A stretch of DNA of 37,173 nucleotides from Actinomycetes bacterium (GCA_021803005.1 JAJZQT010000005.1:10359-47531), one strand, 5' to 3'; shown: positions 223 through 33,867, counted from the first letter of the stretch. Notes: a model not told the origin generated them from the letters alone. Translations and numbers: made by a program.

Positions 223-747
223 ATGCCATTTAACTGGTACGTCATCAATACTTATTCGGGTCATGAGAACAAGGTCCGCCTCAACCTGCTGCAACGGATC
301 AAATCCATGAGCCAGGAGCAGAACGTCAAGGAGATAGTGGTCCCCACCGAGCAGGTGGTCGAGACCAAGAACGGCCAGAAAGTACAGACCGAGAAACGGG
401 TCTTCCCGGGTTATGTGCTGGTGAACATGCTCATGACCGATGACTCCTGGTCGCTGGTGAAGAACACTCCTGGCGTCACCGGCTTCGTCGGCTCGGCCAA
501 CAAGCCGATCCCGCTGAGCGCCCAGGAAGTGGACCGTATTCTTCATACCTCCACCGTCGAGAAGCCCAAGGCGGTGGCGATGTTCAGCGTCGGCGAGACC
601 GTCAGGGTCATGTCCGGCCCGCTCTCGGACTTCAACGGCGAGATTGCCGAGATCAGCGAGGACCAGAGCAAGCTCAAGGTTCTGGTCAACATCTTTGGCC
701 GCGAGACGCCGGTTGAGCTCAGCTTCGACCAGGTAAAGAAAGTCTAG
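223..747 (+). CDS. nusG: Transcription termination/antitermination factor NusG
   Basis: WYVINTYSGHENKV, FPGYVLV, TPGVTGFVG and C-terminal KOW with IFGRETPVEL; secE-nusG-rplK synteny. Confidence 0.98.
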   Translation: MPFNWYVINTYSGHENKVRLNLLQRIKSMSQEQNVKEIVVPTEQVVETKNGQKVQTEKRVFPGYVLVNMLMTDDSWSLVKNTPGVTGFVGSANKPIPLSAQEVDRILHTSTVEKPKAVAMFSVGETVRVMSGPLSDFNGEIAEISEDQSKLKVLVNIFGRETPVELSFDQVKKV

Positions 748-763
748 CGAAGGATATCCGGCC

Positions 764-796
764 CGGCCCGCGAGGCTTGCGGTGCGGGCCGTTTTT
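764..796 (+). terminator. Intrinsic terminator-like hairpin between nusG and rplK
   Basis: cggcccgc (764-771) pairs with gcgggccg (784-791), followed by ttttt (792-796); enclosed by an outer pairing gaaggata (749-756)/tatccttc (801-808). Confidence 0.55.
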
Positions 797-838
797 GCTG
801 TATCCTTCTTGATTGCGCCGTAAACGGACAGGAAGATA

Positions 839-1261
839 ATGGCTAAAAAAGTAATGACACTCATAAAGTTGCAGATCCCCGCCGGGCAGGCGAACCCCGC
901 CCCGCCGGTCGGCCCCGCTTTGGGCCAGCACGGCGTCAACATCATGGACTTCTGCAAGGCTTTCAACGCCAAGACCCAGCAGGAAGGCAACACGATCATT
1001 CCGGTGGAGATCACCGTCTTCGAGGACCGCTCCTTCACTTTTATCACCAAGACCCCGCCGGCAGCGGTACTTTTGAAGCAGGCCGCCGGCATCGAGAAGG
1101 GCTCAGGCGAGCCCCATCGCGAGAAGGTGGCGACAGTGCCGAGCTCCAAGGTGCGCGAGATCGCCGAGCTGAAGATGAAAGATCTTAATGCCAACGACGT
1201 CGAGGCGGCCATGAAGATCATCGCCGGCACCGCCCGCAGCATGGGAATCGTGGTGGAATAA
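839..1261 (+). CDS. rplK: 50S ribosomal protein L11
   Basis: [42 protein letters not shown]; TAATG overlap with rplA. Confidence 0.99.
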
Positions 1262-1968
1262 TGACAACCAAGACCAGCAAGAGGATGAATGAGGCGCGCT
1301 CGCAGGTGGAGCGCGAGAAGCTTTATACGCCGCTCGAGGCGGTCAAGCTCATGAAGAGCCTGCCGGCGGCCAAGTTCGATGAAACCGTCGAGGTCCATTT
1401 TCGCCTGGGCGTCGATCCGCGCAAGGCCGATCAGATGATCCGGGGCACGACCATGCTCCCGCACGGCACCGGCAAGGAGATGCGCGTGGCTGTTTTCGCC
1501 GAGGGCGACAAGGAAAAGGAAGCCCGTGACGCCGGCGCCGATGTAGTCGGCGGCGAGGATCTGGCCAAGAAGATTGAAGGCGGCTGGTTCGAGTTCGACG
1601 TCTGTATCGCCACGCCGGACATGATGAAAGTCGTCGGCCGTCTGGGCCGGGCGCTGGGCCCGCGGGGCCTGATGCCGAACCCCAAGGCTGGAACCGTGAC
1701 CTTCGACATCGGCAAGGCTGTCGAGGACGCCAAGGCCGGGAAGGTGGAATACCGCACCGACCGCACCGCCATCGTGCATCTGGCGATCGGCAAGGTCTCA
1801 TTTTCCGAGGCCGATCTGCTCGACAACTATGGCACCGTCATCGACGAGCTGATCAAAGCCAAGCCCGCGTCCGCCAAGGGCCGCTATATCAAGAGCATCA
1901 CACTGGCAACAACCATGGGTCCGGGACTGCACGTCGATTCGTCGATCGTCCGCGACTTCATGGACTAG
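1261..1968 (+). CDS. rplA: 50S ribosomal protein L1
   Basis: [46 protein letters not shown]. Confidence 0.99.
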
Positions 1969-2062
1969 GGACGTTCGTTTCCTATGTTTCCTAACTTTGG
2001 GAAACACGGGAAACTGCGGACCTGGCCGGTAAGTTAGGAAACATAGGAAACGAACGTCCCTA
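1966..2062. repeat. 97-bp element with perfect 32-bp terminal inverted repeats (MITE/REP-like)
   Basis: tagggacgttcgtttcctatgtttcctaactt (1966-1997) is the exact reverse complement of 2031-2062, with a 33-nt spacer; begins at the rplA stop codon and has TA at both outer ends. Confidence 0.85.
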
Positions 2063-2065
2063 TAG

Positions 2066-2136
2066 CACCAGAGAAAGCCGGTGCCCATTCCCGCCGGGGA
2101 TGAGCCCAAGGGGCCGAAGGCCCGCCCGCCGAGGTG
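2066..2136 (+). promoter_or_regulatory. Ribosomal protein L10 leader (L10(L12)n-binding autoregulatory RNA)
   Basis: Lies upstream of rplJ; cacc (2066-2069)/ggtg (2133-2136) closing stem, with AGAaaGCCGGT...GAAGG...CCCGCCGAGG resembling the L10-leader consensus as I recall it; no covariance search run. Confidence 0.75.
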
Positions 2137-2178
2137 AGATGAAGGAACGATGCGCTGCAAGGCGGCATCGGCTCCGGC

Positions 2179-2210
2179 AGTCTGCCTCGCGGGGCAGACT
2201 TTTTTATTTT
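2179..2210 (+). terminator. Attenuator-type intrinsic terminator in the rplJ leader
   Basis: agtctgcc (2179-2186)/ggcagact (2193-2200) stem followed by tttttatttt, just before the rplJ SD (ggaggt); same arrangement as the Bacillus rplJL attenuator. Confidence 0.75.
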
Positions 2211-2225
2211 GCCGGGAGGTGAGAG

Positions 2226-2747
2226 ATGAAAAAGGAAGATAAGGCGGCCAAGGTGGCTGAACTGGCCGACAGGGCCAAAGCCAGCACCGCCATGCTCGTC
2301 GCCGACTACCGCGGCATTTCCGTCGCTGAAGCCCGTACACTGAGGACCGAGATGCGTGAGGTTGGTGCCCACTTCGAGGTTACCAAGAACACGCTGATGA
2401 TGCGCGCCGTCGACGAGGCCGGCGCCGCCGAACTCAAGGAGTATCTGGTGGGGCCCAGCGCCATCGCTTTTTGCGACGGGGATGCGGTCGAGCCCGCCAA
2501 GGTGCTCGTCAAGTACGCCAAGGAGCTTAAGCCGCTGGAGATCAAGGGCGGCCTGCTAGAGGGCAAGCTCATCGACGTCGCCAAGATCAAGTTTCTGGCA
2601 TCGCTGCCGCCGCGCGAAGTTCTGCTGTCACAGCTGCTGGGCGCCATGCAGGGTCCGATTCGCGGACTGGCGACAGTCTGTGCCGGTCCCATCCGCGGGC
2701 TGGTGACGGTGCTGCAGAGGGTTCAGGAGCAGAAGGAAGCTGCTTAG
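2226..2747 (+). CDS. rplJ: 50S ribosomal protein L10
   Basis: DYRGISV, VTKNTL, GPSAIAF, LASLPPREVLLSQLLG; precedes rplL. Confidence 0.98.
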   Translation: MKKEDKAAKVAELADRAKASTAMLVADYRGISVAEARTLRTEMREVGAHFEVTKNTLMMRAVDEAGAAELKEYLVGPSAIAFCDGDAVEPAKVLVKYAKELKPLEIKGGLLEGKLIDVAKIKFLASLPPREVLLSQLLGAMQGPIRGLATVCAGPIRGLVTVLQRVQEQKEAA

Positions 2748-2778
2748 CCGCTGAAGAAGCTGCTTAGCCGCTAAAGAA
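2736..2778 (+). repeat. 20-bp tandem duplication spanning the rplJ stop codon
   Basis: gaagctgcttagccgctgaa (2736-2755) then gaagctgcttagccgctaaa (2756-2775); one mismatch. Confidence 0.85.
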
Positions 2779-2821
2779 ACGGCCCGCGCGTCTCATTCAA
2801 ATAGTAAATTCAGGAGGAAAC

Positions 2822-3199
2822 ATGGCAGTTGATTCACTCATAGAAGAAATCAAGAAGCTCAGCGTCACCGAGCTGGCCGAGCTGGTCCACGCTCTGGAGG
2901 ATGAGTTCGGTGTCAGCGCCGCCGCTCCCGTAGCCATGGCCGCAGCGCCTGCCGCCGGTGGTGGCGAAGCCGCCGCCGAAGAGGAGCAGACCGAGTTCGA
3001 CGTCGTGCTCGCCGCGGTCGGCGACAAGAAGATCCAGGTCATCAAGGTCGTGCGCGCCGTCACCGGCCTGGGTCTCAAGGAAGCCAAGGAGGTCGTTGAC
3101 AGCGCTCCCAAGCCTGTCAAGGAGAAGGTCTCCAAGGAAGAGGCCGAGGACATCAAGGGCAAGCTGGAAGAAGTCGGCGCCACCATCGAAGTAAAATAG
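2822..3199 (+). CDS. rplL: 50S ribosomal protein L7/L12
   Basis: [45 protein letters not shown]. Confidence 0.99.
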
Positions 3200-3221
3200 C
3201 AAACGCGTTCTCGAAGTATGT

Positions 3222-3258
3222 GGGGCGGCGCTGCCGAAGGCAGCGCCGCCCCTGCTTT
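3222..3258 (+). terminator. GC-rich hairpin downstream of rplL (probable terminator or REP-like stem)
   Basis: Perfect 14-bp stem ggggcggcgctgcc (3222-3235)/ggcagcgccgcccc (3239-3252), GAA loop, only a weak T tract (tgcttt). Confidence 0.55.
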
Positions 3259-3265
3259 GCACCCC

Positions 3266-3308
3266 GAAAGATTGCTGTCGATCGCCATCATGAAAGATTG
3301 CTGTCGAT
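3266..3308 (+). repeat. Perfect 17-bp direct repeat with 26-bp period upstream of the inserted cassette
   Basis: gaaagattgctgtcgat at 3266-3282 and 3292-3308. Confidence 0.85.
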
Positions 3309-3399
3309 TTACATCGAAAATTTCTGTTGCCCGCACGCGCAAATTTTCTCAGGAAATTGAATGCATGCCACTTCTTTGTTTTTCCGGAATAATGGGTAA

Positions 3400-3481
3400 T
3401 AAAGGGATTGAGCAGCAAAACGATGTATAATTTTTATTGTATGTTAAATCCTGAATGTTTCAATATTAGACGTTTGGTCTT
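3400..3481 (+). promoter_or_regulatory. AT-rich putative promoter region of the five-gene cassette
   Basis: Markedly AT-rich tract with a consensus TATAAT at 3426-3431; no well-spaced -35 box found. Confidence 0.45.
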
Positions 3482-4720
3482 ATGGCCATAAACGCCGTCG
3501 ACAATCGCGATGAGGACGAAGATTTCCCGGTCCCCGAGGGGAGAACTCCGCTTGCCAAGGTAAGGAACTATCTGGCTGACCGCCGCTCGGCCCTGGCCGA
3601 TCAGCGCACGGCCATGTCGCGTGGCCGCACCGGTCTGGCTTTCTTCCGTACGGGCATCGCGCTGGTGGCGATTGCCGTCACCCTGCTGAGGACATTCGGC
3701 TTCGGAATTTTCCTTCCCTTTGATGTGGTGCTCATTGCTGGTGGAGCCGCCGCCATCTATGACGGCCTGCGCTGGTACCTGCCCGTGCGCCGGGACGCCG
3801 CCAGGGATCTCGCCTATATCCCGCCGGCCAGGCCGCCAGGCATCTCGGTGCTGCAGACCGAAGACAAAGGCGAGACCGGCGTACCTGAATTTTTTCGCAG
3901 CACCGCTGTCGATGAAGCCGAGGCCATGCGCGGCGACTGGAGCAGCTTAAGCCCGGTCGAGCGGCGGCGATTCCTCGCCAACGACCGCACCGACCTGGCG
4001 GAGGAGCGCGCACACCTTTCCTCTCTGCGGACAACCATGGCCAAATCGCGTATGGGCCTCGCCTTCACGCGCTCAGGTGTGGCGTTCGCCGGCCTCGGCA
4101 TCGCCCTGGTCAGGAAATTTCCGGCCACAGGCTGGAACTATTTCAATTACTTTCTCATCGCCGTCGGCACATTGATGGCGCTCGAGGGTTTTTACTGGTA
4201 CCTGCCCGGCTACCGGGCCGGCCTCGAGGGCTTGGGCCGGTTCAAGCGCTCGCTGCAGGAACCGGGCATATGGGGCGAGCTGTTTCCGCCGCTCAGGACT
4301 TCCCGCAAGAGCTATCCTCCCCTGAAAGCATCGCAGGCGCCGGGCATCTGGGGGACCACCGGCCTGGCGCTGGAGCGCACGGTGCTGGCAGACCGCCGCA
4401 ACCTGATGTCGCGGCTGCGGACCGTCATGGCCCATTCGCGCACCGGCCTGGCCTTCGTGCGCACCGGCATGAGCATCTCGGCGGTGGGCGCGGGCCTGAT
4501 CGCCTTTCTCACCGTGAGCCCTGCCTGGGGAATATTTGACCTGGCGCTGATTCTGACGGGCGGTGTTCTTATAATCGACGGCCTGCGCTGGTACCGGTAT
4601 TCCGAACGAACGCGCCGGCAGTTCCCTTACTGTTACGGCGACCTCGAGATCAACATTCCGGATTACGGCATTCCCCGCAGCAGGTGGGGCAAGGTGATGT
4701 TCAGCCATGACGACCTCTAA
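3482..4720 (+). CDS. Membrane protein with three DUF202/YidH-like repeats, each an Arg-heptad helix plus a TM hairpin
   Basis: Three internal repeats ending R(T/M)GLAFxR(T/S)G-TM-loop-TM-(D/E)GxxWY; Arg at 21/28/35/42/49/56, 162/169/176/183/190/197 and 299/306/313/320/327; resembles the DUF202 motif LAxERTxLAxxRT. Family call is from motif recognition only. Confidence 0.75.
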   Translation: MAINAVDNRDEDEDFPVPEGRTPLAKVRNYLADRRSALADQRTAMSRGRTGLAFFRTGIALVAIAVTLLRTFGFGIFLPFDVVLIAGGAAAIYDGLRWYLPVRRDAARDLAYIPPARPPGISVLQTEDKGETGVPEFFRSTAVDEAEAMRGDWSSLSPVERRRFLANDRTDLAEERAHLSSLRTTMAKSRMGLAFTRSGVAFAGLGIALVRKFPATGWNYFNYFLIAVGTLMALEGFYWYLPGYRAGLEGLGRFKRSLQEPGIWGELFPPLRTSRKSYPPLKASQAPGIWGTTGLALERTVLADRRNLMSRLRTVMAHSRTGLAFVRTGMSISAVGAGLIAFLTVSPAWGIFDLALILTGGVLIIDGLRWYRYSERTRRQFPYCYGDLEINIPDYGIPRSRWGKVMFSHDDL

Positions 4721-5774
4721 CCCGGCGGGCAAACACGAGGCCATGGCGGACGCGAGCGCGATCGAGTACGACGAACGGCTGCCGGTGCCGCCGCAGCTGC
4801 TCGATGGCCTCGACCCCGAAGTGCTCTCACGCGAACTGATATTTCCCGTTTTCCTGGAAGCGGGGACCGTCGTGCTGGCGGCCGCCGATCCCGGCCGGGT
4901 CCCGTCCGCGGAGATCGGCAGGATCACGCATGGGGCTCCCTATCAGCTGCGCCGGGCGGCGCCCGAGGACATCCGCTGGTTCATCGAGGATTTTATGAGC
5001 GACCGGCCCGGCAGGATTATCGGCACCGAGCGCACCGGCCTGGCATTCTGGCGCAACACCATGGCTGCCTGGCGGACCCGGATGGCGTGTTACCGCAACG
5101 ATCTGGCCAAGGCGAGGGTGTCGCTGAGTATCCTGCGCTGGGGCCTCGGGTTCATCACCGTCGCCAGCGCCTCGGCCGTGCTGGAGCTGAATCTGTCTTT
5201 GACCACATTAATGTATTGGAGTCTGTTAATCACGGGCGGGGCAGTCACCGTGCTCGGCCTCTTCCATTACCTGCGCATCCGCCGCTCGATGATGAAGGCT
5301 CCCGGGCCGCAGACGCTGGTGGAGGTGACCACCGCCACGGTGAGCTTCCTTGAGAACTACGAGCTGCAATGCACGTTCAAACCCAGGGTCAAGGGGACGA
5401 TGCTATCGCGCCTGGCTGACTTCCTGCCCAACTATTGCAGCGTGCTGAGGCCCGAGCCCGCCAGCCGCGAGCGCACCCATCTGGCCCGCGAGCGTGACAT
5501 GCTGGCGGCGCACCGGACCCTGGCAGCCTGTTACCGGACCCTTTACGCCCGCGGCCGGACCGGCCTGGCGTTTATCCGGACGGGAATCGTCTTCCTGGGA
5601 ATCGGAGCCGGACTGGTGCAGTACTTCCAGGTCAATCCGTTGGCGCTCTGGGGCTTGCTGCTGTTCGCGGCGGGCGTGCTCATGATCACCGACGGTCTGC
5701 TCTGGTATGTGCCTGCCAGGAAGGAAGAGCCGGACCTGCGGCGCCTCATGACCACCCCTGCGCGCCAGGCATGA
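4707..5774 (+). CDS. Membrane protein with an N-terminal T2SSE_N/MshEN-like subdomain and two DUF202/YidH-like Arg-heptad repeats
   Basis: Residues about 20-97 (L..L....IFPV...GTVVLAAADP...EI......RAAPEDI..FI) resemble the PilB/GspE N-terminal subdomain; Arg at 109/116/123/130/137/144 and 256/263/270/277/284/291, each followed by two TM helices; overlaps the previous gene by 14 nt. Confidence 0.7.
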   Translation: MTTSNPAGKHEAMADASAIEYDERLPVPPQLLDGLDPEVLSRELIFPVFLEAGTVVLAAADPGRVPSAEIGRITHGAPYQLRRAAPEDIRWFIEDFMSDRPGRIIGTERTGLAFWRNTMAAWRTRMACYRNDLAKARVSLSILRWGLGFITVASASAVLELNLSLTTLMYWSLLITGGAVTVLGLFHYLRIRRSMMKAPGPQTLVEVTTATVSFLENYELQCTFKPRVKGTMLSRLADFLPNYCSVLRPEPASRERTHLARERDMLAAHRTLAACYRTLYARGRTGLAFIRTGIVFLGIGAGLVQYFQVNPLALWGLLLFAAGVLMITDGLLWYVPARKEEPDLRRLMTTPARQA

Positions 5775-5788
5775 GTGCCAGGCATGAG
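5764..5788 (+). repeat. 12-bp direct repeat (13-bp period) spanning the stop codon of the second membrane gene
   Basis: gccaggcatgag at 5764-5775 and 5777-5788. Confidence 0.7.
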
Positions 5789-5817
5789 GGCAATGCTGAC
5801 ATGAAACCACACCCGGC

Positions 5818-7227
5818 ATGAGAATCGAACGCAAGATAATCCTCTCCAACACCATTTACCTGGTGCTCATCCTGATCATCGGGGGCTTCGCGGTCCAGTC
5901 GCTGAACAGCGTCAGTGGCAAGCAGCGCTTCCTGGAGATTGCCGACGACCTCAACACCTCCTTCCTGACCATGAGGCTGGCCGAGAAAAACTATTTTCTT
6001 TTCAACGATAACCAGGCACTTACGGATATGCAGAGCAACATAGCCCAGACCCGCGACATCATGGACTCGGTCCGGGGCGACATCATCCCCGTCATCGGCG
6101 AGCAGAGCTACAACGATCTTAGGAACGGGCTCAATGATTACGCCGCCGCCATCGACGAGGCTGCCGCCAGCCACGCCCGCGACCAGCAGACGGCGGCCGA
6201 CATCCGTGGGAAAGGGCGAACCCTCGAGAACACCTCCAACCACATCATCCAGCTCGAGCGCTCCCGCATCAGCGACATCATTACCCGCTCAAAATGGCTG
6301 CTGTTCTCCTCGTTCTTTGCCGTGCTGGTGGCGGCTCTGATCGCCAGCCGCTCGGTTACGAAGAAGATCCTCGGCCCGATCAAGCAGATTGAGCGCCTGG
6401 CGCGGTCCATCTCCGCCGGTAACTTCAAGAAGATCGAGACGGCCAGGCCCAAGGACGAGTTCGGGCCGGTCATCGACGCCATCAACTCGATGTCGGAGGA
6501 GCTCGAGGAACGTGAGGAAGAGCTGATCCAGTCCAAGAAGCTCGCTTCTATCGGCGTGCTCGTGGCCGGCGTCGCCCACGAACTCAACAACCCCGTCAAC
6601 AACATCTCCATGATCGCGCAGACTTACGACGAAATGTATGTAAAGCTGAGCGAGGAGCAACGCATCGAATTCATGCGCAAGATCGACCAGGAATCGGAGC
6701 GGATCAAGGGGATCGTCAACAACCTGCTTGATTTTGCACGCCCCAAGGAACCCAAGCCGCGGCGGATCGATGTCAACGCGCTGCTGACCAAGGCGCTGGT
6801 GCTGGTGCAGAACACGCTCAATGTTTCCAGCATCGAGACCAATCTCGACCTGGACGATGGTTTGCCGGATATCTTTATCGATGACAACCAGGTGCAGCAG
6901 GTGTTCGTCAACCTCTTTCTGAACGCCGCCCAGGCGATGGCGCCCGGGGGACGGCTGTTCGTAAGCACCAGGCTACAGCCTGACGGGAAAATGGTGGACA
7001 TCATTATCCGGGACACCGGGAAAGGCATTCAGCCAGAGTATCTTCCCCATATCTTCGATCCGTTTTTCAGCACCAAGGAGGCGGGCGGCACCGGCCTGGG
7101 GCTCTCGGTGAGTTACAGCATCATCAAAAATCACGGGGGGAACATCCGGGCGGAGAGCCGCCCCGGAATCGGCACCACTTTCACAATCCAGATGCCAGTC
7201 AACCACATCGAGAAAGGAAGCACATGA
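5818..7227 (+). CDS. Membrane sensor histidine kinase (TM, extracytoplasmic helical sensor, TM, HAMP, HisKA, HATPase; NtrB-like class)
   Basis: Two TM segments, HAMP (GPIKQIERLARSISAGNF...DEFGPVIDAINSM), H-box GVAHELNNP (His254), N-box QVFVNLFLNA, G1 DTGKGI, F-box IFDPFFSTK, G2 GTGLGL. Confidence 0.95.
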   Translation: MRIERKIILSNTIYLVLILIIGGFAVQSLNSVSGKQRFLEIADDLNTSFLTMRLAEKNYFLFNDNQALTDMQSNIAQTRDIMDSVRGDIIPVIGEQSYNDLRNGLNDYAAAIDEAAASHARDQQTAADIRGKGRTLENTSNHIIQLERSRISDIITRSKWLLFSSFFAVLVAALIASRSVTKKILGPIKQIERLARSISAGNFKKIETARPKDEFGPVIDAINSMSEELEEREEELIQSKKLASIGVLVAGVAHELNNPVNNISMIAQTYDEMYVKLSEEQRIEFMRKIDQESERIKGIVNNLLDFARPKEPKPRRIDVNALLTKALVLVQNTLNVSSIETNLDLDDGLPDIFIDDNQVQQVFVNLFLNAAQAMAPGGRLFVSTRLQPDGKMVDIIIRDTGKGIQPEYLPHIFDPFFSTKEAGGTGLGLSVSYSIIKNHGGNIRAESRPGIGTTFTIQMPVNHIEKGST

Positions 7228-7592
7228 GCGCAAGGATAATGGTCATCGATGACGAGAAAATCGTCGGCGACATGGCGAAGATATCGCTCGAGGAAGAGGG
7301 CTATGAGGTTGAGACTTTTCTCAATGCCGACCCGGCCCTCAAGCGCCTGCATGAGACCGTCTTCGACGTTGTGGTCACGGACCTGAAGATGAAAGGCATC
7401 GACGGGCTCGAGGTGCTGCGGACAGTGAAACAGACGCACCCGGACACGAAGGTGATCATGATCACCGCTTTTGCCGACCTCGACGTCGCCATCGAGGCGA
7501 TCAAGGGCGATGTCTTCGATTTCTTCCCCAAGCCGGTGAGGATCAAGGACCTCAAGGAATCCATCAGCAAAGCGCTCGCGGAAGAATCGTAA
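7224..7592 (+). CDS. Single-domain response regulator (receiver only)
   Basis: VIDDE, phospho-acceptor D53 (VTDLKM), T81, K103-P; 122 aa with no output domain; ATGA overlap with the kinase. Confidence 0.95.
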   Translation: MSARIMVIDDEKIVGDMAKISLEEEGYEVETFLNADPALKRLHETVFDVVVTDLKMKGIDGLEVLRTVKQTHPDTKVIMITAFADLDVAIEAIKGDVFDFFPKPVRIKDLKESISKALAEES

Positions 7593-10130
7593 GTGACGCT
7601 GAGGCAGAAAATGTTATCCCTGGTGGGAAGGCATACCGGCCGGCGCGAGTCAGCATCGGTCGATGTCCGCTCGGCTTTTGCCGCCTACAAGAAGATCATG
7701 GACGACAACAGCCGCGCCCTGGAGATCATCACCGACATGGGCGAGACCATGAGCGGCGGCTACCTGTTCGACATCGTCTACCTGCGAAAAGCCTACTCCG
7801 ACCTGGCCGTCAGCATGCGCGTCTGCCTGAAAGATTTCAATCAGCTGACCGCGGGGCGCTACCCTGGGCTCGCAAGCGCCTTCGAAGAGATCGATGAGCG
7901 CATCGATGGCCTGGTTTCAGGCACCGTCCGGCCGCTGGAGCGGCTGACCGTTCGCCTCGGGGATATAACGCCGCCCATGGCGCGGGAAGTGGGGGGCAAA
8001 AGTTTTCATCTGGCAGAGATCAAAAACAGCCTCGGGCTCGCGGTCCCGGACGGGTTTGCGCTGACGATCTTCGCCTTCGAGGAATTCATCCGCCACAACC
8101 GGCTTGGAGAAGCCATAGCCTCGCTGGAGAGCGATGGCGATGAACCCGGGCGCCGCCGCGGGTTGCGCGAGCAGATCCTGGCCGGGGGCTTCCCGCCTTC
8201 ACTGGAAAAAGATCTTGCCGGCTCGCTGGAGTGGCTGCGGGGCCGTTGCGGTGATTGCCGCCTGGCGGTGCGAAGCAGCGCCGAGGAGGAAGACGGGATC
8301 TTTTCCTTTGCCGGGCAGTTCGAGACCGTGCTGAACGTTCCGGCCGAAGCCGGGGCTGTTGAGGATGCCTACCGGCGCGTGGTGGCCAGCCTCTTTTCCG
8401 AAGAGGCCATGGCCTACCAGCGGCGGCTGGGTTACCATCCCGGGAGCCTGAGGATGGCGGTGGGCTGTGTCGCCATGGTCGATGCCGCCGTCAGTGGCGT
8501 TGCCTACACCGCCGATCCGCTCGGCGGCGACCGCGGCGTCATGGTCATCAACTCTTCCTGGGGGTTGGGCAAATCCGTCGTCGAGGGGGCTGTGGACGCG
8601 GACCGGTTCGTTGTGGAAAAGACCCCTCCCTACCAGGTGACCGAGCGGGTACTGGGCAGAAAGGAAACCATGACGGCGCCGATGACCGAAGCCGGGGTGC
8701 AGGAGGTCGAAACCGCCGGCGACAGGCGCCATGCTTCTTCCCTGGCGCCCAAGGAACTCGAGGAGATTGTCCGCCAGGCACTGGCCATCGAGGCATACTA
8801 CAAGCGGCCGCAGGACATTGAGTGGGCCGTCGATGGGAACGGACGCGTTGTGATATTGCAGGCACGGCCGCTGAGGATGAAGGAAACAGCGCCCGCGGAA
8901 AACAAAGCTGCGGCCGCCGGGCGCCCGGTGCTCATGCGCAACAAGGGCAGCGTGGTGCAGCCGGGCGCCGTGGGTGGCAGGGTCTTTTTTGCCAGCTCGC
9001 CGGAGGCGCTCGATGAATTCCCCAGGGACGCTATTCTGGTGGCCCGTCATGATTCACCCCAGTATGTGCGGGTCATGCCCTACGCCTCGGCTATCATCAC
9101 CGATGCCGGCAACACCACCAGTCACATGGCCTCGATCAGCCGGGAGTTCCGGGTGCCCACCGTGGTCAACACCGGCGTCGCCACCAGCGTGCTGAAGCCC
9201 GGCGCCGAGATTACCCTTCAGGCCGGCGAAGACGGCGGCATGACCGTGTACGAGGGAATCGCCCGCGAGATCATCGACGAGCAGCACGACACTTTCCTCA
9301 AACTCGAAGAGCTGTACGAGTTCCGGCGCCGCAAATACGTGATGACATATATCACGCCTCTGAACCTGGTCAATCCCTTCACCGACGACTTCGCGCCTGA
9401 GAACTGCCGCACGATTCACGATATCCTGAGATTCATCCATGAAAAATCGATGCGGGAACTGATCGAGGCCTCGCGGCATACGGAACGCGGCTCCTCGCTG
9501 AAGCGCCTGGACATCCCCTTCATGGACACCATCCACGTAATCGATATCGGGGCCGGGCTCGCCGCCGGCGCCGGCGGCGTCATCACTGTCGAGCAGGTGG
9601 TCTCGGTGCCTTTCAAGGCGATCCTGGAAGGAATGTCATTCCCCGGAGCCTGGCGTAAGGGAGGGGTTCCCATCAGCCTCTCGGATTTCTTCACGGCCAG
9701 CATGCGCACCGGTTCCCTGCTTGAAGACATCGATATGAATCTGGCGGTGATTTCCCATTTCTACATGAACCTGGCTGTCCGCTTCGGTTATCACTACACC
9801 GTGGTCGACTGTTTCGCCAGCCAGAGGGCGGCCAGCAACCACATATATTTTCGCTTCCTGGGTGGCGCCGCCGACCTGTCCAAGCGGCTGCGGCGCATCG
9901 AGATGCTCGAGATAATCCTCGATCATCTGGGGTTTGCCTCCCGGGCCAAAGGCGATCTCATCACCGCCACGATCACGAATATCAGTCAGGAGGAGGCTGT
10001 TCGCATCCTCGACCAGTCGGGCCGGCTGATGGCATTCACCCGCCAGCTGGACGCCATGCTTACCAGCGACAGCGCCGTCAAGGAATATGCCCGGAAATTC
10101 ATCGAAGGCGAGTACGAGCTTTTCGGGTAA
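7593..10130 (+). CDS. PEP synthase/PPDK-family ATP-grasp plus phosphohistidine swivel protein with an uncharacterised C-terminal domain
   Basis: VGGK, VPDGF, LAVRSSA..ED...SFAGQFET, SGVAYT.DP, WGLG.SVVEG, PQDIEWA, ILQARP (nucleotide-binding domain); GNTTSHMASISREFRVP with His511; the C-terminal ~270 aa lack PEP/pyruvate TIM-barrel motifs. GTG start abuts the receiver stop; alternative ATG at 7611. Confidence 0.85.
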   Translation: MTLRQKMLSLVGRHTGRRESASVDVRSAFAAYKKIMDDNSRALEIITDMGETMSGGYLFDIVYLRKAYSDLAVSMRVCLKDFNQLTAGRYPGLASAFEEIDERIDGLVSGTVRPLERLTVRLGDITPPMAREVGGKSFHLAEIKNSLGLAVPDGFALTIFAFEEFIRHNRLGEAIASLESDGDEPGRRRGLREQILAGGFPPSLEKDLAGSLEWLRGRCGDCRLAVRSSAEEEDGIFSFAGQFETVLNVPAEAGAVEDAYRRVVASLFSEEAMAYQRRLGYHPGSLRMAVGCVAMVDAAVSGVAYTADPLGGDRGVMVINSSWGLGKSVVEGAVDADRFVVEKTPPYQVTERVLGRKETMTAPMTEAGVQEVETAGDRRHASSLAPKELEEIVRQALAIEAYYKRPQDIEWAVDGNGRVVILQARPLRMKETAPAENKAAAAGRPVLMRNKGSVVQPGAVGGRVFFASSPEALDEFPRDAILVARHDSPQYVRVMPYASAIITDAGNTTSHMASISREFRVPTVVNTGVATSVLKPGAEITLQAGEDGGMTVYEGIAREIIDEQHDTFLKLEELYEFRRRKYVMTYITPLNLVNPFTDDFAPENCRTIHDILRFIHEKSMRELIEASRHTERGSSLKRLDIPFMDTIHVIDIGAGLAAGAGGVITVEQVVSVPFKAILEGMSFPGAWRKGGVPISLSDFFTASMRTGSLLEDIDMNLAVISHFYMNLAVRFGYHYTVVDCFASQRAASNHIYFRFLGGAADLSKRLRRIEMLEIILDHLGFASRAKGDLITATITNISQEEAVRILDQSGRLMAFTRQLDAMLTSDSAVKEYARKFIEGEYELFG

Positions 10131-10260: not shown

Positions 10261-10289
10261 TTGCTTCCGAAAACCAGTTATGTTATATT
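10261..10289 (+). promoter_or_regulatory. Sigma-70/SigA promoter for rpoB
   Basis: TTGCTT (10261-10266), 17-bp spacer, TATATT (10284-10289), with extended -10 TG at 10281-10282. Confidence 0.75.
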
Positions 10290-10346: not shown

Positions 10347-13300
10347 GTGAGCCTTTTGGAGCAACTGTCTGACTACGCTGTAAGTCCCCGCCAACGGAGA
10401 TCCTTCTCCAAACTCGAAAAGATTTTAGAGGTCCCCAACCTCATCGATATTCAGAAAAGTTCCTACGAGTGGTTCCTTGATGAAGGTGTGCGCGAGACCA
10501 TCGCCGACATCTCACCGATTGAGGACTATACCGGCACGCTGGCCGTCGAGTTCGGCGAGCATCATTTCGAGCCGCCGACCAGCAGCATCGAGGAGTGCCG
10601 CGACAAGGACGGCAACTACTCGGCTCCGCTGTTCATGACCGTGCGGTTTATCAACAAGGAGACCGGCGAGATCCGTGAGCAGTCAGTGTTCATGGGCGAC
10701 TTCCCCATGATGACCGAGTGGGGAACCTTCATCATCAACGGCACCGAGCGTGTCGTCGTCACCCAGCTGGTCCGTTCCCCGGGCGCCTACGTCATGGAGC
10801 CCAAGGACCCGGCCAAGCAGATGTTCATCGCCAACCTCATGCCATCCCGCGGGTCCTGGCTGGAGCTCGAGATCGACAAGAAGGGCGTCGTCAACGTCCG
10901 CATCGACCGCAAGCGCAAGCTGCCGGTGACGGTGCTGCTGCGCGCGCTGGGTTACGGCAACGATGACGACATCCGCAAGCTTTTCAGCCTGGAGAAAAAG
11001 ACCAGGAAAAAGGAAGGCAGGGAAGAGACGGAATGGATCTGGGGCAAGGGCAAGAATTCCATCTATATAGACAAGACCCTGGACAAGGACACGACTGAAA
11101 GCCAGGAAGCGGCGATGGTCGAGCTCTTCAAGAAGCAGCGCCCGGGCGAGCCGCCCAGCCTGGAGAGCTCCAAGTCGCTGATCAAGGCGCTGTTCTTCGA
11201 TCCCAAGCGCTACGACCTCACCAAAGTCGGCCGCTACAAGCTCAACACGCGCCTGAACTTGAACGTCAAGCCGGACGTGCGCACGCTGACCAACGACGAT
11301 ATCCTCGAGCTGATCCGCGCTCTGATCATCCTGCCGGAGAAGCTGGAGATCCCCGAGGACACGGTCGATTTCGCGGCCGAGGCCAAGGGAATGCCCCGCG
11401 AGGAGATCACCCACGACCTCGACGAGTACGAGCATTTCGGCAACCGCCGGCTGCGCACCGTCGGCGAGCTGGTGCAGGAAGCTTTCCGCATCGGCCTCTA
11501 CCGCATGGAGCGCGTGGTCAAGGAGCGCATGACTACCGAGGACGTGGACGCTATCACGCCTCAGCATATTATCAATATACGGCCCGTGGTTGCGGCGCTC
11601 AAGGAGTTTTTTGGCTCCTCACAGCTGTCGCAGTTCCTGGACCAGACCAATACCCTGGCCGCCCTGACGCATCGCCGCCGCTTAAGCGCCCTGGGCGCCG
11701 GCGGCCTGACGCGTGAGCGGGCCCCGATCGAAGTCCGCGACGTGCATCCGACCCACTATGGCCGCATGTGCCCGATCGAGACTCCTGAAGGCCCGAACAT
11801 CGGCCTCATCGGCTCACTCTCGTCCTTTGCCACGGTAAATGAGTTCGGTTTCATCCAGACTCCTTACCGCAAGGTGGAGAAGGGCAAGGTAACCACCGAG
11901 ATCGTTTACCTGGACGCCAGCGAGGAAGACAAGTACGTCATCGCCCAGGCCAACGCCGAGTTCAATCCCAAGACCGGCAAGTTCCCGGACAACATGAACG
12001 TGCTGGCCCGTACCCGCGACGGCGAGGTAGTTACTGTCAAGCCCAAGGAAGTCGACTTCATGGACGTCTCGCCGCAGCAGATCGTTTCGGTGGCGACGGC
12101 ACTGGTTCCCTTCCTCGAGCATAACGACGCCAACCGCGCCCTCATGGGCTCGAACATGCAGCGCCAGGCGGTACCGCTACTGGTGTCACAAGCGCCGCTG
12201 ATCGGCACCGGCATCGAGTTCCGCGCCGCCATCGACACCGGCGACGTCATCCTGGCCAAGAACTCCGGTAAGATCAAGGAAGTCGACGCCGAGCACATCA
12301 TCATCGAGACCAGCAAGGGCGAGGATGTTTACGTGCTCAAAAAGTTCACCCGTTCCAACCAGGGTACGCTGATGCACCAGAAGCCGCTGCTGGTCGAGGG
12401 TGACCGCGTCAAGAAGGGCGCGGTGCTGGCCGACGGCGCCTCCACCGACATGGGGGAGATGGCGCTGGGCAAGAACCTGCTGGTCGCCTTCATGAGCTGG
12501 GAAGGTTACAACTTCGAGGATGCCATCATCCTCAGCGAGCGCCTGGTCAAGGACGACGTGCTCTCTTCCATCCATATCGAGGAATACGAGGTCGAGGCCC
12601 GCTCCACCAAGCTGGGCGACGAGGAGATCACCCGTGATATCCCCAACCGCAGCGAAGAGTCGCTGGCCGACCTCGATGAAGACGGCATCATCCGTATCGG
12701 CGCCGAGGTTAACGCCGGCGATCTGCTGGTGGGCAAGGTCACGCCCAAGGGCGAGACCGAGCTGACCGCCGAGGAAAAGCTGATCCGCGCCATCTTCAAG
12801 GAGAAGGCCCGCGAAGTGCGCGACACTTCGCTCAAGGTCCCCCACGGCGAAGGCGGCCGCATCATCGACGTCAAGATATTCTCCCGCGACAACGGCGACG
12901 ACCTCGCCCCGGGAGTCAACAAGCTGGTCCGTGTCTACGTGGCCAAGAAGCGCAAGATCGCCGAGGGCGACAAGCTGGCTGGCCGCCACGGCAACAAGGG
13001 CGTCATCTCCAAGATCGTCCCCGAGGAGGACATGCCCTTCCTCGAGGACGGCACGCCCGTGGACATCATCCTCAATCCCCTGGGCGTACCTTCCCGGATG
13101 AACATCGGGCAGATCCTGGAGACGCACCTGGGCTGGGCCGCTTCGCGCGGCTGGGATGACGGCAACGGTTTCCGGGCGCCGGTTCACGTGGCGACGCCGG
13201 TATTCGACGGCGCCAGCCTCGGCGAGATCGAGGAAGCGCTGATCAAGTGCTACGATCACGACCCGGAGAAGAAGATCACTTATTCCTACAACAACGATGA

Positions 13301-13955
13301 GCCCAACCCGGCCGCCGGCAAGGTGAAGCTGTTCAACGGCCTCACCGGCGAGCCTTACGGCGACAAGATCACCGTGGGCTACATGTATATCCTCAAACTC
13401 CTGCACCTGGTGGACGACAAGATCCACGCGCGTTCCACCGGACCCTACTCGCTGGTGACGCAGCAGCCACTGGGCGGCAAGGCCCAGTTCGGCGGGCAGC
13501 GATTCGGCGAGATGGAGGTCTGGGCGCTGGAGGCTTACGGCGCCGCCCATACGCTGCAGGAGATGCTGACGATCAAGTCCGATGACACCATCGGCCGCGT
13601 CAAGGCCTACGAGGCGATCGTCAAGGGCGAGAACATCCCCGAGCCGAACATCCCCGAGTCGTTCAAGGTGCTGCTGAAGGAGATGCAGAGCCTGGGGCTC
13701 GACGTCGGCATCGAGACCGAGGCCGGCGAGAGCGTCGAGATGATCGAGGAAGACGACGAACTCCGCCGCGCCGCCGAGGAGCTTGGCATCGATCTGTCAC
13801 AGGGCCTGAAGAAGAAGGAAGGCCCGGGCGTGGAGGGAGAGGAAGCAGCCGAGCTGCTTGCGGCCGACCAGGAGCTCTCGGTGGAAGAGGGAGCCGAAGA
13901 GGAAGAGGAAGAGGAAGCGGAAACAGAAGCAGAGGCGGAGGTCGAGGTAGAATGA
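10347..13955 (+). CDS. rpoB: DNA-directed RNA polymerase subunit beta
   Basis: [80 protein letters not shown]; acidic C-terminal tail. True start may be TTG at 10356 (SD-like gagggg upstream). Confidence 0.99.
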
Positions 13956-31120: not shown

Positions 31121-31900
31121 ATGGCAGACGCATACGAGAAAATCGAATTAGGCAGGCGGGCGCCGGAAATGCAGGAAAAAGTCGTGGCGATCAACCGCGT
31201 CGCCAAGGTGGTCAAGGGCGGGCGCCGTTTCTCCTTCACGGCGCTGGTGGTCGTAGGCGACACCGTCAACCAGGTGGGTGTCGGCTACGGCAAGGCCAAG
31301 GAAGTGCCGCTGGCCATCCAGAAGGCTGTCGAGGATGCCAAGAAGAATCTGTTCCGCGTCCCCAAGTACAAGAATACGATCACGCACAAGGTCGTCGGAC
31401 GTTTCGGCGCCGGCCGCGTGTTGATGAAACCTGCTTCTCCCGGTACCGGCATCATCGCCGGCGGCGGCGTCCGCGCCGTGTTCGAGCTCGCCGGAGTACA
31501 CGACGTGCTGGCCAAGTGTCTGGGAACCACCAACCCGATCAATATGGTCAGGGCCAGCATCGAGGGTCTGAAGTCGCTCAAGGACCCGCGTGAAGTCGCG
31601 ATGCTGAGGGGCAAGACGGTAGCAGAGATTTTGGGCACCGACAGAGCGGACAAAGCTGCGGCCGAGGCCGCGGTGGCCAGGACGGCCGCGGCAGAGAAAA
31701 CCGCTGCGGCCAAACCGGCCGCCAAGGCAAAGCCCGCGGCAGCGAAGCCCGCGGCAGCGAAGGCAAAACCGGCAGCGAAGGCGCCGGCAGCCGCCAAATC
31801 AAAACCGGTGGCCGCAAAGGCGCCGGCAGCCAAGGCCAGGCCCGCGGCAAAATCCGCAGAAAAAGAAAACGCTGACAAGCCCGCGGAGAAGAAAGATTAA
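31121..31900 (+). CDS. rpsE: 30S ribosomal protein S5 with Ala/Lys/Pro-rich C-terminal tail
   Basis: [35 protein letters not shown]; 87-aa tail of KPAAAK-like repeats (31637-31897). Confidence 0.98.
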
Positions 31901-33852: not shown

Positions 33853-33867
33853 CGACCGGGACTGGTA

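Follow-up and report, generated by a model that had tools for sequence, protein, structure and literature searches.

The genome of an Actinomycetes bacterium (GCA_021803005.1, JAJZQT010000005.1:10359-47531) carries five genes between rplL and rpoB, which raises the question of what these genes do, whether they belong together, and how they came to occupy this place. We analysed the whole 37,173-nt stretch (hereafter the window, in which positions are counted from the first letter). Calling of open reading frames (ORFs) in the window placed five ORFs, all on the plus strand, between the two genes: g1, a membrane protein of 412 aa (3482..4720, Pfam DUF202); g2, a second membrane protein of 355 aa (4707..5774, Pfam MshEN, with DUF202 just below the cut-off); g3, a sensor histidine kinase (5818..7227; HAMP, HisKA and HATPase_c); g4, a stand-alone receiver (REC) of 122 aa (7224..7592; Response_reg); and g5, a dikinase-type enzyme of 845 aa (7593..10130; PPDK_N and PEP-utilizers). 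The genes g1 and g2 overlap by 14 nt, g2 and g3 are separated by 43 nt, g3 and g4 share a 4-nt ATGA overlap, and g4 and g5 adjoin without a gap, or with a gap of 18 nt if the next ATG is taken as the start of g5 (839-aa database form P0001). An initial annotation of this DNA had described five co-oriented genes with such tight junctions, and the ORF calls confirmed the description. The interpretation to which we incline, with some reserve, is that the five genes form a self-contained, horizontally acquired module, consisting of a signal-controlled phosphotransferase and an anion conduit, which is lodged in a permissive slot between rplL and rpoB.

The initial annotation held that the five genes work as a unit, and their linkage in other genomes agrees with this. 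A scan of one genome per species gave 198 relatives of g5, of which the best 80 were examined, and 60 of these 80 loci had enough upstream DNA to be informative. The arrangement g1-g2-g3-g4-g5, in the same order and on the same strand, was present in 55 of the 60 informative loci; four had only g3-g4-g5 and one had other content. When the search was made with g1, the pair g1+g2 was found in 22 of 38 genomes of one Nitrospirota order, and among the 20 loci fetched, g3-g4-g5 followed downstream of the pair in 15 of the 16 that had sufficient DNA on that side to be informative. In some of the loci found through g1, additional genes (0-3 kb) stand between g2 and g3, and in one genome the gap amounted to about 10 kb. 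The cassette is distributed over Nitrospirota, Desulfobacterota and one small-genome family of Actinomycetota. The view that the cassette is one conserved, acquired functional unit is well supported. In three Nitrospirota loci (L078, L092 and L099; in L081 the gene is frameshifted) we also noticed a second copy of the three-module membrane gene, giving a 3+3+2 arrangement, and the cassette is accompanied in some genomes of Desulfobulbaceae and Nitrospirota by as many as three more dikinase-like paralogues in tandem (L105:12627-20291, L132:298-5391, L109:12960-15266).

How the cassette reached an actinobacterium was examined through g5. The closest g5 proteins come from Actinomycetota metagenome-assembled genomes (MAGs) labelled Thermoleophilia, and the next homologues, at 45-50% identity, from Nitrospirota (Thermodesulfovibrionales, Sulfobium, Dissulfurispiraceae) and Desulfobulbia. 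In a maximum likelihood tree of 82 proteins of the g5 family (quick method, LG+G4, rooted on 12 paralogues), the six actinobacterial rows formed one clade (support 100), nested in a clade of 19 rows (support 100) together with Desulfobulbaceae, 'delta' MAGs and two Nitrospirota, and the deeper branches were all Nitrospirota; the 'Myxococcota' labels in this tree are unreliable, the records being named 'Deltaproteobacteria bacterium'. The actinobacterial copies are thus nested in a Nitrospirota/Desulfobacterota radiation, and the cassette was therefore acquired horizontally. The affinity to these two phyla, which the initial annotation had suggested, is supported by both the homologue lists and the rooted tree, and the topology is consistent with only one transfer into the family of actinobacteria.

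The distribution of the cassette in the host family is patchy, with copies in 6 of 24 genomes (G000, which is the genome of the window, G002, G003, G013, G016 and G019). Its composition is host-like: the GC content at third codon positions is 0.78-0.84 in the cassette and 0.77-0.89 in the flanking genes, so that the comparison gave no compositional sign of recent transfer, and hence the transfer was either not recent or involved a donor of similar composition. A Pfam scan of the five proteins showed no integrase or transposase domain and a repeat search found no direct or att-like repeats flanking the cassette, in line with the earlier description. The g1 proteins of three Nitrospirota/Desulfobacterota loci have an added N-terminal MshEN-like domain of about 140 aa (L062:5342-7006, L066:5274-6917, L089:5261-6859); the actinobacterial g1 proteins (window; G016, L060) are without it, a loss that accompanied the transfer.

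The enzyme g5 consists of an N-terminal 120-aa region, a PPDK_N ATP-grasp domain (132-439), a phosphohistidine swivel domain (476-544) and a C-terminal domain (approximately 560-845), with Pfam scores of 255.8 bits for PPDK_N and 62.1 bits for PEP-utilizers. The motifs RSSxxxED, QxR and TSH(511) were invariant in 20 sequences of the g5 family. With its PPDK_N domain and a swivel domain carrying a conserved His, in the order seen in PpsA, the protein resembles members of the phosphoenolpyruvate (PEP) synthase/pyruvate phosphate dikinase superfamily, which also includes phenylphosphate synthase, rifampicin phosphotransferase and PigC/RedH. It differs from the known members in three respects: g5 has the extra 120-aa N-terminal region, its family always occurs together with a receiver, either as a separate partner or as a fusion, and its acceptor domain is a family-specific alpha/beta domain without a match, not the PEP/pyruvate TIM barrel.

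In this C-terminal domain 42 columns are invariant, many of them occupied by His, Arg, Asp or Asn. Its profile retrieved 1403 representative clusters and, among the full-length proteins listed, the domain was located at or near the end of dikinase-like proteins of about 850 aa. A profile search against PDB sequences returned chance-level rows only, a structural model of the domain (pLDDT 71.7) gave nothing at E <= 1e-3 in Foldseek and a best Z of 5.8, equal to background, in the VIA search, and in the ESM Atlas only the family of g5 itself was found. Low-stringency Pfam scans of the g5 N- and C-terminus, the g3 sensor domain and the g1 linker were likewise limited to sub-threshold matches (HBM, CHASE3, HbpS-like), those of the g3 sensor being HBM and CHASE3.

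The receiver is closely associated with this enzyme. In cassette loci reaching that far, a REC gene stands directly upstream of g5, and in all five loci of a g5 paralogue it stands directly downstream of the paralogue. Moreover, in three of eight odd-length members of the g5 family tested (P0158, P0155 and P0172) a REC domain is fused behind the C-terminal domain, and these gene fusions corroborate the association of the receiver with the enzyme. Another member, P0260, has a lectin/ConA-like C-terminal extension in place of REC.

The receiver itself (Response_reg, 95.7 bits) has, as read from the translation, DD at 9-10, the D of VVVTDLK, the T of MITAF and the K of FPKP, which we take to be the acidic pocket, the phospho-Asp, and the Thr and Lys of a receiver. 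It is the most conserved gene of the cassette, with 68-93% identity to cassette orthologues across phyla, compared with 42-77% for g5 and 44-87% for g3. The kinase g3 has a transmembrane (TM) segment at 7-25, a helical extracytoplasmic domain of about 130 aa, a second TM segment at 158-176, and then HAMP, HisKA and HATPase_c domains. Together, g3 and g4 have the composition of a two-component system, namely a HisKA + HATPase_c kinase and a receiver.

The two membrane proteins are built from repeated helical hairpin modules. For g1, Pfam DUF202 scored 47.9 bits against a gathering score of 23.4, and three modules were recognized; the AF2 model (pLDDT 74.8, pTM 0.74) places the hairpins at 23-72/78-107, 158-212/219-259 and 295-342/347-380. 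For g2, the DUF202 score of 21.9 bits was slightly below the cut-off, and a hidden Markov model (HMM) of the single unit identified two modules. An alignment of 34 g1 sequences showed invariant arginines at R21/28/35/42/56, R169/176/190/197 and R299/306/313/320/327, with R49 and R183 nearly invariant (>=90%), and g2 has invariant ladders at R109...144 and R256...291. We then aligned 45 single modules, five from each of nine genomes. The module consensus is RTxLAxx repeated 5-6 times, followed by two hydrophobic helices; five Arg columns, spaced by exactly 7 residues, were invariant in 45/45 modules, each of which has 5-6 Arg, and 42 of the 45 isolated modules matched DUF202 at E <= 0.01 (best 2.7e-9). 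The Arg ladder that the initial annotation had noted in the membrane pair is thus real and invariant in the g1, g2 and single-module alignments. Of 81 sources, 44 showed the 3+2 pattern of modules, and the remainder were mostly truncated.

The N-terminal part of g2 is an alpha/beta domain similar to GspE/MshE-N (MshEN 35.9 bits against a cut-off of 23.1, HMM positions 9-87; 39 bits for the isolated N-terminus). We considered g2 as a receptor of cyclic di-GMP, in view of this match, and set this reading aside; on inspection of residues 1-110 we noticed no RLG-type motif, and the RLGxx...-type motif is, we assume, the signature of cyclic di-GMP binding in MshEN domains.

On the basis of these parts we propose the following working scheme, in which the order of phosphorylation, the identity of the acceptor, the pentameric assembly and transport are only what we infer. 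The kinase g3 would sense an extracytoplasmic signal through its helical sensor domain and phosphorylate the stand-alone receiver g4, which would in turn act on g5. The enzyme would load a phosphoryl group from ATP onto the swivel residue His511 and pass it to an acceptor bound by its C-terminal domain. The pair g1+g2 would supply five DUF202 hairpin modules (3+2), the same module and number as in the pore of the yeast VTC polyphosphate channel, each extended by 5-6 invariant Arg-Thr rungs one heptad apart, and would most likely form a conduit or binding path, lined with positive charge, for an anion, presumably a phosphorylated one, that is tied to the g5 reaction. In the initial annotation the five products were read as one unit that senses an external ligand, switches a dikinase-like enzyme and moves or binds a phosphorylated or polyanionic product; the single unit, the Arg ladder and the acquisition have stood up to the analysis, whereas the mechanism keeps the rank of a proposal.

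The comparison with VTC deserves to be considered from both sides. According to a published account (PMC9911596), yeast VTC, a polyphosphate polymerase and translocase of eukaryotes, is a Vtc1:Vtc3:Vtc4 pentamer of 3:1:1 stoichiometry, in which five TM1 helices form the pore and the basic residues of the pore are 7 apart (K24/R31, K622/R629, K698/R705); the SPX-VTC-DUF202 architecture is described in another report (PMC12388464). The cassette resembles VTC in having a membrane module of Pfam family DUF202, in the number of five modules per assembly, provided that g1 (three) and g2 (two) pair, and in the basic residues placed one heptad apart on the first helix of the module (PMC9911596). In contrast to the five subunits of VTC, the modules of g1 and g2 are concatenated in two polypeptides; their ladder has 5-6 rungs and reaches far into the cytoplasm, and the partner enzyme is of the dikinase type. 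We regard as improbable, although worth stating, the stronger proposal that the cassette is a bacterial counterpart that realizes the VTC principle with different parts, in such a way that a receiver-gated dikinase-type enzyme would make or load a phosphorylated polyanion and feed it directly to a pseudo-pentameric 3+2 Arg-ladder channel for passage through the membrane.

Several observations weigh against the phosphotransferase-conduit interpretation, and against its VTC element in particular. The g1 model has two long helices per module instead of three TM helices, and hydropathy analysis gave at most two hydrophobic segments per module in g1 and g2. No TTM or SPX Pfam domain was found in the five cassette proteins. 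Profile searches of PDB with g1 and with the single module returned only chance-level rows and no VTC, and the g1 model found nothing at E <= 1e-3 and no VTC in Foldseek; a wide VIA search retrieved designed helical repeats and toroids (best Z 11.3, which is below the meaningful level for helical proteins) and again no VTC, helical models being hard to match in fold searches. No match of sequence or fold to solved VTC chains was found, and the link to VTC is drawn solely from the Pfam family, the module count and the spacing of basic residues. PPK1 (PF02503) and PPK2 (PF03976) were found in none of the 24 genomes of the host family (G000-G023), with or without the cassette; PPK1 was found in one of the 38 genomes of the Nitrospirota order in which 22 have the membrane pair (G041-G081), and the distribution of PPK separated cassette-positive from cassette-negative genomes in no pattern. 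Finally, the modules are separable, as indicated by the trio-only loci, by g5 paralogues (about 30% identity) located beside REC and kinase genes without DUF202 genes, and by inserts of 3-10 kb between g2 and g3 in some genomes. Most other families of the class to which the host family belongs carry both PPK1 and PPK2. In the literature, within a search reach that leaves out most subscription-journal papers, we found no paper on the cassette; the papers found on DUF202 and polyphosphate deal with no bacteria, and none was found that joins DUF202 with PPDK_N, nor one that connects TauE and USP with PEP-utilizing enzymes in Thermodesulfovibrionia.

The close association of receiver and enzyme could also be explained by a phosphorelay in which g4 is the phosphoryl acceptor of g5, the latter serving as an ATP-driven His-to-Asp donor whose C-terminal domain docks the receiver; g3 would then be a second input or a phosphatase, and the membrane pair the output target of the receiver. 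This explanation would account for a REC that always adjoins, or is C-terminally fused to, an enzyme of the g5 family, and the conservation of REC above that of all other genes of the cassette would fit several binding partners. The C-terminal domain of g5, moreover, matches no known small-molecule-binding fold, and a GspE-N-like protein-interaction domain is present on g2 and, in other phyla, on g1. However, the receiver already has a cognate kinase in the cassette, whose H-box and ATPase motifs are intact, and the many invariant His, Arg, Asn and Asp residues in the C-terminal domain resemble a catalytic pocket. We also know of no enzyme of the dikinase family that phosphorylates a receiver, and we consider the phosphorelay rather unlikely.

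The separability of the modules bears most directly on another explanation, to which we give a similarly low probability, that two independent modules simply share their journeys. The DUF202 pair would then represent a stand-alone, stress-related membrane system with a functional connection to the TauE, Alph_Pro_TM and USP genes found 5' of it in other phyla, and the trio g3-g4-g5 would have an unrelated cytoplasmic function. The four trio-only loci, the paralogues without DUF202 genes and the inserted genes can all be read in this way. The genes directly 5' of g1 in Nitrospirota and Desulfobacterota often encode a TauE/SafE-type permease, an Alph_Pro_TM protein and USP in tandem; among the 46 loci with >=8.6 kb upstream of g5, TauE was present in 25 and Alph_Pro_TM in 27. 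Alph_Pro_TM also occurs in all six cassette-bearing genomes of the host family versus 3 of 35 others, which is a lead and not a test, because related genomes are not independent samples. On the other hand, the order and strand of the five genes are kept across three phyla, and the gap between g2 and g3 in the window is only the 43 nt given above, with no terminator-like hairpin above chance. The five genes also moved together into Actinomycetota without adjoining TauE, Alph_Pro_TM and USP genes; in the genome of the window, a row of TauE, Alph_Pro_TM, USP and USP is located on another contig (C45:26067-29750; L139).

Database names of its homologues ('pyruvate, water dikinase', 'PEP-utilizing enzyme') and PpsA as its best NCBIfam match suggest that g5 could be nothing more than a phosphoenolpyruvate synthase (pyruvate, water dikinase) with incidental neighbours. 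The PpsA matches are, however, partial, covering positions 9-472 of 798 (the N-terminal 60%), and reach 300.8 and 289.4 bits where the cut-offs are 598 and 739.75; g5 lacks a PEP-utilizers_C domain, the C-terminal 286 residues of g5 form a different conserved domain, and a separate match to the first 545 residues of g5 (32% identity) is encoded elsewhere in the genome (C83), all of which makes this explanation very improbable. Least credible of all is a rifamycin phosphotransferase-like resistance enzyme placed beside the drug target gene: g5 does belong to the same superfamily (NCBIfam RIF_Ptrans_rph, E 2.8e-55) and lies directly 5' of rpoB, but its scores of 188.1 and 135.5 bits are far from the cut-offs of 999 and 1700, only residues 117-429 (the ATP-grasp part) align, its swivel domain is in the middle of the protein and not at the C-terminus, where we take that of Rph to be, and the position beside rpoB is seen in two genomes only, other copies of the cassette being located elsewhere.

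Having favoured the acquired phosphotransferase-conduit module, we turn to the place that it occupies. We searched the rplL-rpoB interval in 41 related genomes, including that of the window. In 19 relatives the two genes are separated by a spacer of 136-324 nt, and in 9 of the 41 genomes, the genome of the window being counted, the interval holds cargo; the statement of the initial annotation that rplL and rpoB are normally adjacent or nearly so is correct only in a loose sense. The cassette occupies the interval only in the genome of the window and in the congener G002, where the same order, nusG...rplL, the five genes, rpoB and rpoC, is present on a 398-kb contig. In G003, of the same genus, the cassette is located elsewhere, 1 kb from an IS30-like transposase, and in G016 it lies within a polysaccharide gene cluster. 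The IS30-like transposase of G003 (HTH_38 + rve) stands with a methyltransferase just 3' of the cassette (L059:11573-12550).

Seven other relatives hold different and unrelated cargo between rplL and rpoB (loci within L051-L058): a group II intron reverse transcriptase in G003, a HisKA_3 kinase with a LuxR regulator and DUF4440 in G004 and G014, a NosD-like beta-helix protein in G009, a TMEM260-like glycosyltransferase with a NosD-like protein in G018, a 510-aa protein with no family assigned in G015, and a subtilase in G029. The glycosyltransferase and NosD-like pair is found also in G022, an eighth relative with cargo after rplL, whose contig ends before rpoB. Small insertions into this operon cluster are known from elsewhere, e.g., nrdHEF after rplL in Lactobacillaceae (PMC8046335). 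The two cases are alike in that a few accessory genes follow rplL and the cluster is otherwise intact; unlike the Lactobacillaceae case, the interval examined here has been filled repeatedly with unrelated cargo within one family, and the cargo in the genome of the window came from another phylum.

The edges of the slot are marked by two elements. After rplL (2822..3199, plus strand; Pfam Ribosomal_L12 and Ribosomal_L12_N) there is a GC-rich hairpin at 3222..3252 on the plus strand with a perfect 14-bp stem (3222-3235/3239-3252), a fold energy of -39.9 kcal/mol and z = -5.2, and none of 200 shuffled sequences folded as well, in agreement with the strong hairpin reported in the initial annotation. 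It aligns with a hairpin in the short rplL-rpoB spacer of G001 and, by this alignment, is a putative ancestral terminator- or attenuator-like element of rplL that forms the upstream edge of the cargo slot. At the other edge, the extended -10-like 11-mer TATGTTATATT is located at 10279..10289 on the plus strand, 68 nt before rpoB (10347..13955, plus strand; six Rpb2-type RNA polymerase beta-subunit Pfam domains). The identical 11-mer occurs at a distance of 68-73 nt from rpoB in 12 of 19 related loci, among them seven of the nine with cargo, and the ~90 nt that immediately precede rpoB can be aligned with the spacers of G001, G007 and G023. A separate promoter of rpoB, as had been suggested, is therefore plausible, with this TGnTATATT-type sequence as the promoter-like element and as the downstream edge of the slot. 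As far as the aligned loci indicate, the cargo is always placed between the rplL hairpin and the conserved rpoB-proximal element, and since the slot is bracketed by a terminator-like hairpin and a promoter-like element, an insertion need not disturb rplL or rpoB.

Between the hairpin and g1, the DNA is AT-rich, as the initial annotation had pointed out, with a GC content of 0.51 for bases 3001-3500 compared with 0.615 for the whole window. A -10-like hexamer TATAAT, read from the sequence, is present at 3426..3431 on the plus strand, 50 nt before the start of g1, and is kept in G002; a promoter consensus scan near it gave further promoter-like sites, but not above the level of shuffled sequences. 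Two 24-nt direct repeats with the core GAAAGATTGCTGTCGAT (family D13, 88% identity) occupy 3266..3315 on the plus strand, 26 nt apart from start to start and 5' of the promoter-like region of the cassette. They are conserved only in part in G002 and may be a candidate site for a regulator.

We compared the locus with public contigs. Two of them, from two other studies (X2 and X4), run unbroken from 3246/3248 to 10600, that is, through the cassette into rpoB. All public contigs compared (runs X2-X5) end at the hairpin after rplL (3228-3246), most likely due to an assembly break at the 31-nt near-palindrome. Because the public contigs stop there, the junction on the rplL side rests on the assembly of the window itself and on G002.

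Upstream of the cassette, the window contains nusG, rplK, rplA, rplJ and rplL (223-3199), on the same strand as the cassette; downstream of it, rpoB is followed by rpoC, and the remainder is the familiar str-S10-spc-alpha cluster, which extends from rpsL to rpsD and includes secY, map and infA. As all of these genes belong to the translation and transcription machinery, the five cassette genes are the sole accessory genes in the 37 kb. The longest ORFs found there for L3 (23041-23931, 296 aa), L4 (23951-24769, 272 aa) and S5 (31121-31900, 259 aa) exceed what we take to be the usual bacterial lengths, and no adk gene is present between secY and map (33853-33867).

If the proposed working is correct, the cassette would represent an unstudied machine composed of signalling proteins, an enzyme and a channel, present in many uncultured members of Nitrospirota and Desulfobacterota; the dikinase superfamily would gain a new acceptor specificity, the C-terminal domain of g5 being present in >1400 representative clusters, and multi-module bacterial DUF202 proteins would receive their first function. 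The VTC-like reading, if true, would further imply a new way in which anaerobic sulfur-cycle bacteria synthesize and export a polyanion (e.g., polyphosphate-like), a route passed on to an actinobacterial lineage in which neither PPK1 nor PPK2 was found. Whatever the function of the cassette, unrelated cargo has landed repeatedly in this actinobacterial family between the rplL terminator and the promoter-like element of rpoB, which makes the interval informative on genome plasticity and a candidate site for neutral integration, and a whole five-gene module has crossed the borders of phyla and taken its place within the gene cluster that is the most conserved of the genome.

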